Shown piece after piece: positions 4,532 to 17,500 of a stretch of DNA of 18,343 nucleotides (the first letter of the stretch is position 1; the number at the start of each line of letters is the position of its first letter). Location of the stretch: IMG/VR virus record IMGVR_UViG_2526164601_000033; one strand, 5' to 3'. Under the pieces are notes generated by a model, which saw only the letters and a program-made list of their open reading frames with translations, had not been told where the DNA came from and searched no databases. A program made the translations under genes and the position numbers. The DNA comes from a virus. Taxonomy: Duplodnaviria; Heunggongvirae; Uroviricota; Caudoviricetes.

Positions 4532-4589
4532 AAAAAGGGCGGCAGAGCAGTCACGGAGTAAAACTGATACCGCCAAACGTCACCAGAAA
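4532..4589 (-). ncRNA. dicF: DicF small regulatory RNA with its 3' terminator
   Basis: The reverse complement of 4532-4589 reads TTTCTGGTGACGTTTGGCGGTATCAGTTTTACTCCGTGACTGCTCTGCCGCCCTTTTT, which matches E. coli DicF as recalled, including the GGCGG/CCGCC terminator stem and U-run. It lies about 170 nt upstream of dicB on the same strand, as in Qin. Confidence 0.8.
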
Positions 4590-11549: not shown

Positions 11550-11852
11550 CCGGATGCCGCGCCAGCGGCATGTAGGGGCAGCTCACAAAACGGAAAAAAT
11601 TGTACGCTAAGCCTCGCCAGGTGAACTGAATTCATTCCGATATGGGAATTCCCATATCGGGCGAAAACGGTTTGCTGTAACGGCAGAGTTAAGTAGGATT
11701 GCTGCGGGTGCTTGAGGCTATCTGCCTCGGGCATGAACACCAACGGCAGATAGATAAAAGCCCCACCCGACTATAAATCGAAGTGAGGCCCCTATATGCT
11801 CGTCACATATAGATTGCCTCTTACGGACCGAAAGGTCAAGGAGAAGCAGGCT

Positions 11853-12008
11853 ATGAAGCAGCAAAAGGCGATGTTAATCGCCCTGATCGTCATCTGTTTA
11901 ACCGTCATAGTGACGGCACTGGTAACGAGGAAAGACCTCTGCGAGGTACGAATCCGAACCGGCCAGACGGAGGTCGCTGTCTTCACAGCTTACGAACCTG
12001 AGGAGTAA
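11853..12008 (+). CDS. hokD: Hok/Gef-family membrane toxin (type I toxin-antitoxin toxin)
   Basis: 51-aa product MKQQKAMLIALIVICLTVIVTALVTRKDLCEVRIRTGQTEVAVFTAYEPEE matches HokD/RelF as recalled. AAGGAG SD. A long structured leader lies upstream, with palindromes at 11637-11660 and 11792-11812. Confidence 0.85.
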   Translation: MKQQKAMLIALIVICLTVIVTALVTRKDLCEVRIRTGQTEVAVFTAYEPEE

Positions 12009-13891: not shown

Positions 13892-14257
13892 ATGACTGAA
13901 CGGATAGAATTTGTTTTGCCTTACCCGCCGACGGTGAATACCTACTGGCGACGTCATGGCAATACGTATTTCATCTCGGAAGCCGGAAAGCGTTATCGCC
14001 GTGATGTGGCGCTAATTGTTCGCCAGCAGCGGCTGAAATTAAACCTGTCCGGAAGGCTGGTGATAAAGATTATTGCAGAGCCACCGGATAAGCGCCGTCG
14101 TGACCTGGACAATATCCTGAAAGCACCACTGGATGTGCTGACGCATGCCGGACTTCTCATAGACGACGAGCAGTTTGATGAAATCAATATTGTGCGCGGT
14201 CAGCTCGTTCCTGGTGGGCGGCTGGGGATAAAAATCACAGAACTGGAGTGCGCATGA
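13892..14257 (+). CDS. rusA: RusA Holliday-junction resolvase
   Basis: 121-aa ORF. The blocks LPYPPTVNTYWRRHGN and DKRRRDLDNILKAPLDVLTHAGLLIDDEQ parallel E. coli RusA ([45 protein letters not shown]) as recalled. Confidence 0.9.
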   Translation: MTERIEFVLPYPPTVNTYWRRHGNTYFISEAGKRYRRDVALIVRQQRLKLNLSGRLVIKIIAEPPDKRRRDLDNILKAPLDVLTHAGLLIDDEQFDEINIVRGQLVPGGRLGIKITELECA

Positions 14258-14475
14258 ATAACCACTATTTACAGTTTGTGCGTGAGCAGCTCATTATCGC
14301 CACCGCTGATTTGAGTGGGGCAACAAAAGGTCAGCTTGAAGCCTGGCAGGAGAATGCCATGTTCGATACAGGGCGTTACAGGCGAAAAAAAATCCGGTAC
14401 CGCGATGAAGTGACTGGAAAAATGATAACGCGGGATAATCCACCAATCGTTATTATCCTGCGCCCGGCCCTTTAG
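14254..14475 (+). CDS. Hypothetical 73-aa protein; 3' end runs 10 nt into the first tRNA
   Basis: ATG at 14254 overlaps the rusA stop (ATGA), with GGAG 5 nt upstream. The stop codon TAG at 14473-14475 lies inside the tRNA. It occupies the position where a late antiterminator Q gene would be expected but is too short for one. Confidence 0.35.
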   Translation: MNNHYLQFVREQLIIATADLSGATKGQLEAWQENAMFDTGRYRRKKIRYRDEVTGKMITRDNPPIVIILRPAL

Positions 14476-14541
14476 CTCAGTGGTGAGAGCGAGCGACTCA
14501 TAATCGCCAGGTCGCTGGTTCAAATCCAGCAAGGGCCACCA
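14466..14541 (+). tRNA. tRNA-Ile2-like (anticodon CAU; Met cannot be excluded from sequence alone)
   Basis: Manual cloverleaf: acceptor GGCCCTT/AAGGGCC, D-arm GCTC-AGTGGTGA-GAGC, anticodon loop CTCATAA, T-arm GCTGG-TTCAAAT-CCAGC, encoded CCA. Resembles E. coli ileX-type tRNA as recalled. Confidence 0.8.
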
Positions 14542-14542
14542 A

Positions 14543-14618
14543 CCGCCACTAGCCATCAGGAAAGAGCGTCAACCCTTTAAGTTGAGTGTGCGAGGTTCGA
14601 GTCCCCGGTGGTGGTCCA
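14543..14618 (+). tRNA. tRNA-like sequence, degenerate (possible pseudo-tRNA); predicted anticodon loop CCTTTAA
   Basis: Acceptor CCGCCAC/GTGGTGG (one G-U pair) plus encoded CCA and a canonical GGTTCGAGTCC T-loop. The D-stem has only two Watson-Crick pairs (GCCA versus GAGC), the T-stem has an A-C mismatch, and position 33 is C rather than U. Confidence 0.4.
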
Positions 14619-14631
14619 TTATCGGTATTCT

Positions 14632-14705
14632 GCGTTGTTAGCTCAGCAGGACAGAGCAATTGCCTTCTAAGCAATCGGTCACTGGTTCGACTCCAGTACA
14701 ACGCG
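14632..14705 (+). tRNA. tRNA-Arg (anticodon UCU, reads rare AGA)
   Basis: Manual cloverleaf: acceptor GCGTTGT/ACAACGC, D-arm GCTC-AGCAGGAC-AGAGC, anticodon stem ATTGC/GCAAT with loop CTTCTAA, T-arm ACTGG-TTCGACT-CCAGT. CCA is not encoded. Confidence 0.8.
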
Positions 14706-14721
14706 CTACACTTATTTTCCC

Positions 14722-14746
14722 GGCTCGCTTTTGCGGGCCTTTTTTG
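14722..14746 (+). terminator. Rho-independent terminator after the tRNA cluster
   Basis: Stem GGCTCGC / GCGGGCC (one G-U pair) with TTTT loop, followed by TTTTTTG. Confidence 0.6.
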
Positions 14747-14788
14747 TATCTGCGCCACGCCCGGCGCATACCAACCACAGAGCCTTTC

Positions 14789-14798
14789 GGGGGGGGGG
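14789..14798. repeat. G10 homopolymer tract
   Basis: Ten consecutive G at 14789-14798, about 80 bp upstream of the TerB-like start codon. Confidence 0.9.
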
Positions 14799-14880
14799 AG
14801 CTTACGGAGTGGTCAGTGTGACTTTCTCTGTGGGCAGATCGCTCCCGGGCGTTGGCTCACCCACCCAAAGGAACGTCACG

Positions 14881-15313
14881 ATGTTTGGTATTTTTGGTAA
14901 AAAAAGCCCGCAGAGCGGCAACGGAAATTAAAAAGTTTGAAAAACGCGATCTGGCACAGGTGGTGATTAACGCCGCCTACCTGGTGGCCTGTGCAGATGG
15001 TGAATGTGAGGCTTCCTAGAAAGCGAAGATCGAACAGGTACTGCGTAATCAGCCTGCGCTGTACGCGTTTACGTCAGAAATTAATGCGATTAGCGCAACC
15101 ATTATCGGTCAGCTGGATACGAACTTTAAAACTGGTCGTCGTGCGGCGTTACGTGAGATCGAGGATGTGAAACACGATACGCGTGAAGCGGAAGATGTGC
15201 TGGATGTGGCGGTGGCCATTGCGGAGGCAGACGGCGAAATTGAGCCGGAAGAGCGCAAGGTGCTGGAAGAGATTGCCGGTGTTCTGGGTCTTCGTCTGGA
15301 GAATTACCTGTGA
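14881..15313 (+). pseudogene. TerB-like (tellurite-resistance TerB family) gene disrupted by a frameshift in an A7 tract and an in-frame TAG
   Basis: ATG at 14881 (AAGGAA SD) reads MFGIFGKKSPQSGNGN then stops at 14929-14931. The +1 frame from about 14906 continues ...FEKRDLAQVVINAAYLVACADGECEAS-TAG(15017-15019)-KAKIEQVL...AVAIAEADGEIEPEERKVLEEIAGVLGLRLENYL, ending at 15311-15313. The ADGE..EE motifs are TerB-like as recalled. The frame change maps to the A7 run at 14899-14905. Confidence 0.6.
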
Positions 15314-15477
15314 CGGTAAAACTGCGCCTGACTGTGGCTGCACTCCTGCTGTTTCTGGTGGTGATGGTGGATTTCACCAGCAGAATCATGTCGGTGCTGG
15401 CGGATGGGGTGCTGGTCTGCGGCATTATGGTATTGCTGTGGCCGGTGATAAAAAGAAACAGCCTGCATAATGCTTGA
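15310..15477 (+). CDS. Possible small membrane protein (55 aa, GTG start overlapping the TerB-like stop)
   Basis: The frame reads VTVKLRLTVAALLLFLVVMVDFTSRIMSVLADGVLVCGIMVLLWPVIKRNSLHNA with two hydrophobic segments. GTGA start/stop overlap and no clear SD, so weak. Confidence 0.3.
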   Translation: MTVKLRLTVAALLLFLVVMVDFTSRIMSVLADGVLVCGIMVLLWPVIKRNSLHNA

Positions 15478-15643
15478 TTTTTTGTTTGCTGTTTATTAAA
15501 AACACTTCTGCATGGTGAATCCCCCTGTGCGGAGGGGCGATCAGCAACCAGGTATATGGGATAATCGCGGATTCAGGTGCTGATACTGAATTCACCGGGA
15601 GGCACCCGGCACCATGCAAGAAAAAGAATGTGCATGCAAACAT

Positions 15644-15667
15644 GCCCCTCTCCGGAGGGGCTTTTTT
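15644..15667 (+). terminator. Rho-independent terminator in the intergenic region upstream of the esterase gene
   Basis: Stem GCCCCTC / GAGGGGC with TCCG loop, followed by TTTTTT. Confidence 0.55.
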
Positions 15668-15794
15668 ATGGGTAAAAAATGCCCGAATGGGTTCGGGCAA
15701 CAGCATGAGATACTGATATTGTTGTGTTGTTATCGTGTGGATTTTAACCAGGGTTTATCAGGCTGCGCAACTGCGTGGCCTTTTTTCATTTCTT

Positions 15795-15839
15795 GGGCTG
15801 TAGTCCCCGTGTGTCATTCAGGCTTCCGGACTACAGCCC
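15795..15839. repeat. 12-bp perfect inverted repeat (GGGCTGTAGTCC ... GGACTACAGCCC) with 21-nt spacer
   Basis: Arms at 15795-15806 and 15828-15839, about 45 bp upstream of the esterase ATG. Confidence 0.6.
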
Positions 15840-15882
15840 ACTCCATATCTGATTTAATACACTATCCCGGCCGGGAGGAATA

Positions 15883-16824
15883 ATGACATTTAAACATTAT
15901 GATGTTGTCAGGGCGGCGTCGCCGTCAGATCTTGCGGAAAAGCTGACACATAAACTGAAAGAGGGCTGGCAGCCGTTTGGTAGTCCGGTGGCCATAACCC
16001 CTTATACTCTGATGCAGGCGATTACAGCAGAAGGTGATGTGGTGGTCAGTGGTGCAACTGAGCCGGATTGGTACTACGTCATCGTACTGGCCGGGCAGTC
16101 CAATGCCATGGCTTACGGTGAAGGGCTTCCGCTGCCGGATTCATACGATGCTCCGGATCCGCGCATTAAACAGCTGGCGCGCCGCAGTACAGTGACGCCG
16201 GGTGGGGCTGCCTGCAGATATAACGATATTATTCCGGCCGACCACTGCCTGCATGATGTGCAGGATATGAGTACGCTGAATCATCCGAAGGCAGACCTGA
16301 GCAAAGGGCAGTACGGCTGTGTCGGCCAGGGGTTACATATTGCCAAAAAACTGCTCCCGTATATCCCGAATAACGCGGGGATCCTGCTGGTACCATGCTG
16401 TCGTGGTGGTTCGGCATTTACCCAGGGCGCGGAGGGGACATTCAGTGCGGACACGGGGGCCAGCCAGGATTCGGCGCGCTGGGGTGTGGGTAAACCGTTA
16501 TATCAGGACCTGATTGCGCGCACCAAAGCTGCATTACAGAAGAACCCGAAAAATGTGTTGCTGGCGGTGTGCTGGATGCAGGGAGAGTTTGACATGAGCG
16601 CCGCCACCCACGCACAGCAACCTGCGCTGTTTACAGCCATGCTGACACAGTTTCGTGCTGACCTCTCCGTGTTTAACGCGCAGTGCCATGGTGGCAGTGC
16701 TGCAGATGTGCCGTGGATTTGTGGTGACACGACGTATTACTGGAAAAATACCTACGGCACCCAGTACACCGGGAAAGCAATCGCTGGCGAAGGTGACGTC
16801 AATTCCTCTGGTCAGTCCGGTTGA
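15883..16824 (+). CDS. Sialate O-acetylesterase-like protein (NanS-p-like: N-terminal DUF1737-like segment plus SGNH/SASA esterase domain), apparently truncated
   Basis: 313-aa ORF with GGGAGG SD. Motif LAGQSNAMAYGE (the GQSN block of SGNH/SASA esterases) and WMQGEFD (WxQGESD-like). Synteny with prophage nanS-p paralogues downstream of the tRNA cluster in lambdoid/Stx phages; those are usually much longer. Confidence 0.75.
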   Translation: MTFKHYDVVRAASPSDLAEKLTHKLKEGWQPFGSPVAITPYTLMQAITAEGDVVVSGATEPDWYYVIVLAGQSNAMAYGEGLPLPDSYDAPDPRIKQLARRSTVTPGGAACRYNDIIPADHCLHDVQDMSTLNHPKADLSKGQYGCVGQGLHIAKKLLPYIPNNAGILLVPCCRGGSAFTQGAEGTFSADTGASQDSARWGVGKPLYQDLIARTKAALQKNPKNVLLAVCWMQGEFDMSAATHAQQPALFTAMLTQFRADLSVFNAQCHGGSAADVPWICGDTTYYWKNTYGTQYTGKAIAGEGDVNSSGQSG

Positions 16825-17263
16825 GTTTTCGACATCATCGTGGCGGCGGGCTGTTCTGTCTCTTGAAGAACATCATAAAGCCTGGTTGTTGTGGTGTTAC
16901 AGCGGGAGTATTTGTTGGGAATATCAGATCGCGATAACACAGTGGGCGTGGAATGAATTTAATACTCAATCCGGTACCAGAAAAATTGCTGGGAAAACGC
17001 AGGAACGCCTGAAAAAATTAATCTGGCTGGCGGCGCAGGCAGTAAAAGCAGAACTTTTTGGTGGGGAAGGTTATGAATATCAGGAGCTGGCATTACTGGC
17101 GGGAGTGACAACTAAAAACTGGTCCAAAACATTTACTCGTCACTGGGTTGCAATGAAACACATTTTTCACCGACTGGATAGTGAGGCTTTATTATTTGTA
17201 ATGAGAACACGTTCAAAACAAAAGGCGGCATTTTCAAAGCAATGTGTTGCAAAAGTAGATTGA
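16825..17263 (+). other. Open reading frame without a credible start, in a different phase downstream of the esterase stop (possible frameshifted C-terminal remnant)
   Basis: The track ORF 16655-17263 is stop-free for 202 codons but has no ATG with an SD after 16824. The part upstream of 16824 is the alternate frame of the esterase gene. Confidence 0.3.
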
Positions 17264-17326
17264 AAGGCATATATTTCATGCAAATCTGATATTTTGCCGA
17301 TTTTGTACGTGATGGCAAAAGCAAAC

Positions 17327-17354
17327 AAAACCCGCCCACAAGCGGGTTTTGTTG
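17327..17354 (+). terminator. Rho-independent terminator (hairpin plus T-run)
   Basis: Stem AAAACCCGC / GCGGGTTTT with CCACAA loop, followed by GTTGT. An A-run precedes it, so it could act in both directions. Confidence 0.6.
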
Positions 17355-17500
17355 TGCCACTTATCTCGGATAGACATGGTGAATGCGCTGGTGGAGGAGA
17401 TAAGGGTGATTTTTGTATGCTTGCAACATTGATTTCGTAACACACCATTTACGGGGCGTACAAAAACAGGGAGAGTGAGGGCGTTTATTTTGTGCCCTTC

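Follow-up and report, generated by a model that had tools for sequence, protein, structure and literature searches.

A probable pseudogene of a prophage tRNA-Lys(UUU) in the argN slot of a lambdoid tRNA gene cluster

Introduction

Stx2 and other lambdoid phages of the 933W and VT2-Sakai type carry a cluster of three tRNA genes, ileZ-argN-argO, whose naming and rare-codon interpretation are said to go back to Plunkett and colleagues in 1999. A cluster in the same place, downstream of Q, pR′ and tR′, is found in the DNA analysed here – the window, 18,343 nucleotides of IMG/VR record IMGVR_UViG_2526164601_000033 (Caudoviricetes), which is part of a lambdoid prophage. Its middle gene poses a question. 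A first-pass annotation, made from the letters of the sequence, had noted an unusual set of features in an otherwise tRNA-like element – a D-stem of two pairs, an A-C mismatch in the T-stem, a C at position 33 and the anticodon UUU – and offered two readings: a decaying tRNA, or a non-canonical RNA with another role. Which of these is it, and from what did it derive? Literature on ileZ/argN/argO, Stx phage tRNAs, lambdoid tRNA-Lys and O157 prophage tRNA pseudogenes yielded nothing specific to the matter.

Results

The cluster and its setting

The cluster and its immediate surroundings are organised as follows.

14466-14541, plus strand: ileZ-type tRNA, anticodon CAU (Met/Ile2-CAU to ARAGORN), with encoded CCA, intact; Rfam 72.5 bits, identical copies annotated tRNA-Ile by RefSeq
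14542, plus strand: spacer of 1 nt, separating the ileZ CCA from +1 of the middle gene, read directly
14543-14618, plus strand: middle gene, 76 nt, a probable pseudogene of the tRNA-Lys(UUU) lineage in the argN slot (ARAGORN, Rfam, alignments, RefSeq comparison)
14619-14631, plus strand: 13-nt spacer before argO, variable among alleles
14632-14708 (14632-14706 in ARAGORN), plus strand: argO-type tRNA-Arg(UCU), fold intact; Rfam 68.1 bits
14722-14749, plus strand: terminator-like hairpin and T-run just 3′ of the cluster (consensus match only)

Both flanking tRNAs fold canonically, as the first-pass annotation stated, with one correction: alignment shows that argO ends here in CTA, where other phages encode CCA. 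Downstream of the cluster a TerB-family gene contains an internal stop (15017-15019), as it does in E2865, and on the evidence of these two lesions the neighbourhood of the middle gene is decaying too. Rfam also identifies the prophage sRNAs STnc100, AgvB, sok and DicF in the region.

From 14448 onward there is no difference between the window and PPompW_14040, a prophage integrated at ompW in E. coli O157, nor between the window and prophages of O26, O103, O111 and O145 STEC. The middle gene itself recurs unchanged (the window allele) in approximately 225 complete E. coli genomes and in 14 copies from IMG/VR or GenBank; recurrence on this scale excludes sequencing error. Many STEC lineages share the allele without change, but because the same holds for its non-coding flanks this identity reflects recent spread and is silent on selection. 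Alignment to the cluster of Stx phages, which had been proposed as a check, places the middle gene in the argN slot as an argN homologue; against those phages ileZ (identical) and argO (nearly so) are almost invariant, while the middle gene, although it shares the length plan, T-loop and CCA of argN, is far more variable.

Fold of the middle gene

ARAGORN calls the middle gene as Lys-UUU at 14543-14618, with these parts, all on the plus strand.

14543-14549 and 14608-14614, plus strand: acceptor stem, 7 bp
14552-14567, plus strand: D-arm
14569-14585, plus strand: anticodon arm
14574-14580, plus strand: anticodon loop CCUUUAA, with C33 at 14575, UUU at 14576-14578 and A37 at 14579
14591-14607, plus strand: T-arm
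14593 and 14605, plus strand: A51 and C63, a T-stem mismatch
14612, plus strand: U70, in a G3.U70 wobble
14615, plus strand: discriminator U
14616-14618, plus strand: encoded CCA

The drawing agrees with the good acceptor stem, canonical T-loop and encoded CCA described earlier, and adds a wobble that had gone unmentioned: position 3:70 is the one G.U in the acceptor stem. The anticodon stem retains all five pairs below its 7-nt loop, the T-loop (TTCGAGT) conforms to TTCRA, and G18G19 and a purine at position 37 are in place. The irregularities are equally real, each being present in the same drawing: G10-C25 and C11-G24 are the only pairs of the D-stem, short of the three or four of a tRNA; A51.C63 interrupts what should be a fully paired 5-bp T-stem; and C33 stands where a canonical elongator tRNA has U33. 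A bulged 3-bp D-stem gains only 0.3 kcal/mol and was rejected.

The call is nonetheless a borderline one. A 5% increase in the ARAGORN score threshold removes it, while the neighbouring tRNAs persist to 115-120%. A standard fold in another register, which the first-pass annotation had named as grounds for abandoning its view, did not emerge: ARAGORN barely accepts the gene, in the same register, and found no other cloverleaf register for it. An Rfam search with 301 nt gave no match between the middle gene and the tRNA family RF00005 at E<=10; the best match within the clan was tRNA-Sec at 15.7 bits, the RF00005 score being lower still and thus short of the gathering score of 29 bits that sets membership. 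Annotation pipelines disagree in the same manner. ARAGORN and one GenBank pipeline label the window allele tRNA-Lys, while RefSeq/PGAP – used here as a proxy for the verdict of tRNAscan-SE – leaves it unannotated in E2865 and other genomes, listing there tRNA-Ile and tRNA-Arg alone.

A lineage of prophage tRNA-Lys(UUU) genes

The UUU anticodon had been taken as a departure from the Arg anticodon expected by synteny. Comparison with other prophages changes this picture, for an intact tRNA-Lys(UUU), set apart from the Arg type by three compensated pairs, fills the same slot in many of them. RefSeq annotates such genes in an Ile-Lys-Arg cluster (Z1323CEC0011) and in Ile-Lys-Thr-Gly clusters (EC31, AR_0118, 2012C-4221), and the alleles so annotated differ from the window allele at one to three positions; from the commonest, the window allele is separated by one deletion and one substitution. 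The two agree at every marker of the lineage: the anticodon arm UCAAC-CCUUUAA-GUUGA, the pair C7-G66, the D-loop AUCAGGAAA and the variable loop GUGUG. Among 56 contigs selected by their Q gene and not by tRNA sequence, a Lys type whose D-stem is intact was found in 25, Arg(UCG) in 15 and the window allele in 12. When genome contigs were scanned for the Lys-type anticodon-arm pattern, most matches beyond E. coli and Shigella fell in unrelated bacteria by chance.

Scores against the Rfam tRNA model separate the window allele from these relatives, which, where intact, range from 37.0 to 53.2 bits.

Sakai argN: 54.8 bits
Lys type with U33 (2012C-4221): 53.2 bits
Common Lys type with C33: 44.4 bits
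F349 argN: 43.0 bits
Z1323 Lys: 37.0 bits
Window allele: no match
U8C variant (2009C-3133): no match

The annotated tRNA-Lys genes of Z1323CEC0011, EC31 and AR_0118 share with the window allele C33, A51.C63, the anticodon arm, the D-loop and the variable loop; they differ in having T12 and a D-stem of 4 bp, in scoring 37-44 bits and in being annotated, none of which holds for the window allele. An intact cloverleaf, as recognised by RefSeq/PGAP and by Rfam, is found in the window allele by neither.

Two of the three defects noted at the outset are widespread. C33 is present in 18 of 19 distinct 77-nt Lys-type alleles, the rare 2012C-4221 form alone having U33, and A51.C63 is present in 17 of the 19 as well as in the argN genes of F349, Nil2 and WGPS6; the pair 51:63 is unpaired in 16 of 48 distinct middle-slot alleles. 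The mismatch is not disabling by itself, because alleles that carry it still pass Rfam. C33 and A51.C63 are, judged from these alleles, inherited with the Lys lineage and not specific to the window.

The T12 deletion

The lesion that destroys the D-stem can be located precisely.

Between 14553 and 14554, plus strand: deletion of T12 in the 5′ strand of the D-stem (GCTC to GC-C), from alignments

Loss of T12 is found in two alleles alone: the window allele (14 copies) and one sister allele, L175 (2 copies). Their surroundings differ, the window allele having argO as its next gene and U70, the sister allele tRNA-Thr and C70. L175 is the commonest intact Lys allele minus T12, and since the two are otherwise equal the comparison isolates the effect of the deletion: the Rfam score falls from 44.4 to less than 17.8 bits, a drop of at least 26 bits. 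Restoring T12 to the window gene takes the energy of the constrained cloverleaf from about -15.1 to -20.4 kcal/mol, so that its loss costs some 5 kcal/mol; the two D-stem pairs that are left contribute 0 kcal/mol. These are cloverleaf-constrained energies, a form of prediction that leaves tertiary contacts and modifications outside its scope; they were adopted because minimum-free-energy folding proved uninformative about the quality of a tRNA, the cloverleaf not being the predicted fold for functional argN alleles or even for ileZ. All 16 T12-deleted copies have the same, perfectly paired anticodon arm with UUU. On comparison of alleles the broken D-stem is the only one of the three listed defects particular to the window copy.

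Origin of the Lys type

That the middle gene belongs to the argN slot is evident from position and from sequence: it is identical to F349 argN at 65 of 77 positions (84%). The anticodon has nevertheless moved. C35 is the main identity element for ArgRS, and position 35 of the middle gene is U. Compared with the argN of Stx phages, the window gene has UUU in place of UCG, switched pairs at 7:66, 27:43 and 30:40, C33 and the loss of T12, and it fails a tRNA model against which Sakai argN is a clear match.

The nature of the switched pairs is telling. When 48 distinct middle-slot alleles were aligned and pairs counted on the cloverleaf, 95.8% of cells were paired, as against 28-53% with the 3′ partners slid, and the observed covariation score was reached by none of 500 shuffles. 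Between the Arg and Lys types both sides of a pair have changed, with pairing kept, at 7:66 (U-A/C-G), 27:43 (C-G/U-A) and 30:40 (G-C/A-U); each switch counts as one historical event, giving three events and not many. From these switches it follows, as far as a comparison of alleles can show, that the Lys type took shape as a cloverleaf able to work, and because three compensated stem pairs part it from the Arg type, UUU is inherited and not acquired by drift. The IMG/VR allele L329 is an Arg(UCU) form with the Lys-type anticodon stem, one transition short of UUU.

The Lys type and the middle gene share 78-84% of positions with argN, and 61% with host lysT. Capture of lysT as the source of the Lys type was rejected on this contrast (81-84% to argN against 61%), which indicates derivation from the phage Arg scaffold. 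The window allele bears a further trace of argN: from the T-arm to the end of the downstream spacer its sequence is that of F349-type argN, U70 included, and among Lys alleles position 70 follows the neighbour, being C where Thr is next and T where argO is next. This suggests that the window gene is a Lys/Arg recombinant, with a crossover inside the gene between Lys-type and Arg-type clusters.

Constraint on the middle slot

Cluster flanks are mosaic and partly non-homologous overall, and for this reason a matched test was restricted to 20 Ile-Lys-Thr-Gly haplotypes with flank identity of at least 90%. Segregating sites per nucleotide were as follows.

ileZ: 0
Thr: 0.039
Gly: 0.053
Lys type (leaving out 19 nt on which the locus search was based): 0.121
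Non-coding flanks: 0.055 and 0.170

Variation in the C33 Lys lineage is on a par with that in the non-coding flanks and about four times that in the neighbouring tRNA genes. The difference between Lys and the neighbouring tRNAs is significant (Fisher's exact p=0.011), although site counts are small (7 versus 7) and the haplotypes related and recombining; Lys and flanks are indistinguishable (Fisher's exact p=0.83), and the neighbouring tRNAs differ from the flanks (p=0.0002). Clusters of the Ile-X-Arg arrangement have their highest nucleotide diversity in the middle gene (π = 0.058, against 0.025 for argO and 0.0028 for ileZ), and 31% of middle-gene copies there contain indels. Lesions have arisen independently within the Lys lineage: U8C (approximately 25 copies), the T12 deletion, single D-stem mismatches and, in Stx2c phages, a 12-nt deletion in the anticodon arm. 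No single arm is specifically more conserved than the rest in alleles of 77 nt. All of this points in one direction, albeit with small numbers and non-independent haplotypes: the middle slot appears weakly constrained and prone to repeated decay.

Discussion

The middle element is probably a prophage tRNA-Lys(UUU) gene turned pseudogene, the product of ordinary decay and not a new kind of RNA. Chance resemblance to a tRNA is not at issue, because homology to real tRNA genes is unambiguous. What marks it as a pseudogene is the combination of clear homology to functional tRNAs with a disabling lesion that has no counterpart in its intact relatives, and, at the level of the lineage, relaxed constraint relative to the neighbouring functional tRNAs. 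The first-pass suggestion of a decaying tRNA is thereby borne out: the element fails the Rfam tRNA model, RefSeq omits the identical allele while annotating relatives in which T12 is intact, and the lineage has lost constraint.

A history can be proposed by comparison. The middle slot would first have held an Arg tRNA (argN, with UCG; UCU forms exist), which in one lineage was remodelled to Lys(UUU), compensatory changes preserving the cloverleaf. Most of the Lys lineage would then have gained C33 and A51.C63, and seems to have been under little constraint since. In the copy found in the window the T12 deletion would have destroyed the D-stem, and recombination with an argN-type cluster would have supplied the 3′ end with G3.U70 and the argO neighbour. 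The pseudogene is probably still transcribed with ileZ and argO, and RNase P and exonucleases can probably still release the RNA, given that the acceptor/T-arm helix and the CCA are intact. Deprived of a D-stem it would lack an L-shaped core, making charging, EF-Tu binding and use by the ribosome unlikely; the RNA is probably degraded, with no part in decoding. The loss of the middle tRNA would be cheap because EHEC genomes hold several such clusters – from five to nine in those carrying the window allele.

The alternatives grant the element some function, or a different past. The least improbable of them, though still unlikely, is that the element, while it no longer decodes, has been retained for processing: its acceptor/T-arm helix and CCA would act as a tRNA-like signal, at whose 5′ end cleavage by RNase P trims the 3′ trailer of ileZ and splits the precursor. 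RNase P of E. coli splits polycistronic tRNA transcripts and cleaves acceptor/T-arm minihelices, and with the CCA of ileZ only 1 nt from position +1 of the middle gene such a cut would set the ileZ trailer. Furthermore, none of the decayed alleles seen has lost the 7-bp acceptor stem or the CCA, however badly its interior is wrecked, and these alleles include an 80-nt scrambled form and the form with the 12-nt deletion. But preserved ends may equally reflect short divergence, or recombination via conserved ends; the T-loop consensus is lost from the scrambled 80-nt allele; the even conservation of arms among 77-nt alleles singles out no signal; and RNase E together with 3′ exonucleases offers E. 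coli other routes to mature ileZ. We regard as distinctly improbable that the element is a working, if unusual, tRNA-Lys(UUU), which might serve when the host tRNA-Lys is cleaved by PrrC, RloC or the PARIS effector AriB. There are grounds for the idea. The phage T5 tRNA-Lys(UUU) neutralises PARIS (PMC11464382) and phage tRNA-Lys genes rescue phages from PrrC170 (PMC11555353), in each case tRNAs with altered stems; like that of T5, the window gene is phage-borne, reads UUU and has an anticodon stem unlike that of the host, all five stem pairs as well as position 33 differing from E. coli lysT. The stem UCAAC/GUUGA is in effect the host stem GUUGA/UCAAU with its strands swapped, ARAGORN does call tRNA-Lys, and the acceptor and anticodon stems, T-loop, G18G19, A37 and CCA are intact. 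Yet the D-stem is destroyed, with a fall of at least 26 Rfam bits from the loss of T12 alone, RefSeq leaves the gene unannotated, and the lineage varies like non-coding DNA. The resistant T5 tRNA-Lys, moreover, keeps a full cloverleaf and a canonical loop (CUUUUAA, with U33), whereas the window gene has no D-stem and C33, which also led us to reject C33 as a hallmark of nuclease-resistant phage tRNA-Lys. The discriminator is U here and A in the tRNA-Lys of both host and T5, and G3.U70 could misdirect charging. Just as improbable is a broader version in which the Lys(UUU) lineage at large, with its strand-swapped anticodon stem and C33, is a prophage counter-defence tRNA evading PrrC, RloC and PARIS AriB, the T12-deleted copy persisting as a tRNA-like decoy that neither decodes nor is cleaved, or as a processing element; were it true, a strategy described for T5-like virulent phages would extend to the lambdoid prophages of EHEC, which are temperate.

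A new role for the element as a non-decoding RNA – a decoy titrating some nuclease or modification enzyme specific for tRNA-Lys, or a source of regulatory fragments – is more doubtful again. The UUU anticodon arm preserved in all T12-deleted copies and the other prophage sRNAs of the region are permissive of such a role, and in this respect the second reading of the first-pass annotation gained nothing further: no Rfam family beyond the weak tRNA-Sec match was found, no covariation outside the cloverleaf, conservation no greater than that of the flanks, and no partner or target. Hardly credible at all is the view that the element began as argN, tRNA-Arg(UCG), and that UUU arose by drift once the gene had been inactivated. 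The shared slot and the identity to F349 argN are in its favour, but drift is at odds with the intact, annotated tRNA-Lys(UUU) that has the same anticodon arm in many prophages and with differences in the anticodon stem that are compensated pairs and not random changes.

As a tRNA pseudogene the element is ordinary and belongs to a familiar kind; the switches of anticodon in the past of its slot make it modestly more interesting. Pseudogenes and remolding of tRNA genes in general combine a recognisable scaffold with a lesion, a sub-threshold score, faster substitution and a shift of anticodon; nothing essential differs here, the setting in the late operon of multi-copy EHEC prophages being what is specific. 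There is nonetheless a practical consequence for annotation. ARAGORN-based pipelines report a tRNA-Lys where RefSeq/PGAP reports nothing, so that tRNA counts for EHEC prophages differ between pipelines, and neither marks a pseudogene. The middle slot of ileZ-argN-argO is better seen as a variable cassette, occupied by Arg-UCG, Arg-UCU, Lys-UUU and many broken forms beside an almost invariant ileZ, a disparity which suggests which of the three tRNAs these prophages need. Should counter-defence against tRNA-Lys-cleaving systems be pursued in these prophages, the intact Lys-type relatives, and not the window copy, are the reasonable candidates.

A possible rearrangement around Q

Two adjacent blocks are swapped in the window relative to every related genome, as mapped by BLAST against E2865, PPompW_14040 and 7.1_Anguil.

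14254-14448, plus strand: 5′ third of the Q antiterminator gene, cut at 14448 and fused straight to the tRNA cluster (BLAST mapping)
16769-17441, plus strand: displaced block of 673 bp, comprising the rest of Q (to 17263) and the intergenic region between Q and the tRNA genes
17324-17353, plus strand: tR′-like hairpin within the displaced block, which also holds a promoter-like site

The displaced block lies inside a SASA-esterase gene, whereas in all other genomes it is directly upstream of the position corresponding to 14448. For the hairpin, Nil2 offers an annotated tR′ as reference. A query spanning 14448 was split in two in all 15 top matches listed from 5,426 complete E. coli genomes, and the 30-mer at this junction is absent from IMG/VR and from JGI metagenomes; the natural junction is present in 98 IMG/VR contigs. 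A real swap would break Q and separate the tRNA cluster from its late promoter, consistent with a defective prophage, but the arrangement may just as well be an artefact of assembly or construction. Either way it does not affect our conclusions about the middle tRNA gene, because these rest on the sequence of the middle gene itself and of its relatives.

Allelic variation in the middle tRNA slot

Features of the middle gene recur in Stx2 phages. The argN alleles of Stx2a_F349 (comparison locus L003:414-490) and Nil2 (L010:414-490) carry the A51.C63 T-stem mismatch together with G3.U70 – the classical AlaRS identity pair – and score 43 bits with Rfam, compared to 54.8 for argN of Sakai. Both alleles are annotated as functional in these phages.

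The Lys-type gene itself is most commonly found in a cluster of four tRNA genes, Ile(CAU)-Lys(UUU)-Thr(UGU)-Gly(UCC), as in E. coli EC31 (L132:1437-1746) and AR_0118 (L133:1437-1746), with a Q gene of the same type upstream. The middle-slot allele of the IMG/VR locus L329, an Arg(UCU) allele with U33, an A51-U63 pair and an anticodon stem (UCAAC/GUUGA) of the Lys type, may be an intermediate linking the Arg type to the Lys type, since UCU and UUU are separated by a single transition.

Also frequent is a middle-slot allele of 80-81 nt, present in L018 and some 30 further IMG/VR loci. The acceptor stem, T-stem and CCA are retained, but scrambling has affected the T-loop (which reads GCGGGT, for example) as well as the D-arm and the anticodon arm; ARAGORN detects no gene in this allele. 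It represents a further, independent decay of the middle slot.

The neighbouring argO of the window departs from that of other phages at its 3′-end, where CTA (14706-14708) stands in place of the encoded CCA, and in its T-loop (TTCGACT rather than TTCGAAT). Apart from this, its fold is preserved (68.1 bits). The tRNA would require the CCA-adding enzyme of the host.

An exchange of adjacent blocks

Comparison with related genomes shows that two adjacent blocks, 14448-16767 and 16769-17441, stand in exchanged order in the window relative to all of them, with breakpoints at 14448, 16768 and 17441. As a consequence the breakpoint at 14448 splits the Q antiterminator gene, and the one at 16768 splits a gene for a SASA-family esterase. 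The junction created by the exchange was found neither among the matches listed from 5,426 E. coli genomes nor in IMG/VR or JGI metagenomes; the natural junction is found in 98 IMG/VR contigs. Inspection of the swap junctions revealed neither repeats nor a target-site duplication. The exchange is either a private rearrangement or an artefact of assembly or construction.

The region downstream of the tRNAs

Downstream lies a ten-G run (14789-14798), at which an IS110-family element (ISEc20) is inserted in LC567818, whose prophage is otherwise identical. Next to be noted is a disrupted gene:

14888-15316, TerB-family gene 3′ of the tRNA cluster, with an internal stop codon at 15017-15019

The reading across the stop is GECEAS*KAK. 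E. coli E2865 has an equal defect, annotated by RefSeq as a pseudogene; in O157:H7 strain 7.1_Anguil the gene is intact.

Rfam matches, all exceeding the gathering score, place four prophage sRNAs in the window:

4537-4588, minus strand, DicF sRNA (76.7 bits)
11706-11855, plus strand, sok antitoxin of a hok/sok module (103.9 bits)
15481-15673, plus strand, STnc100 prophage sRNA (145.8 bits)
15674-15735, minus strand, AgvB anti-GcvB sRNA (95.6 bits)
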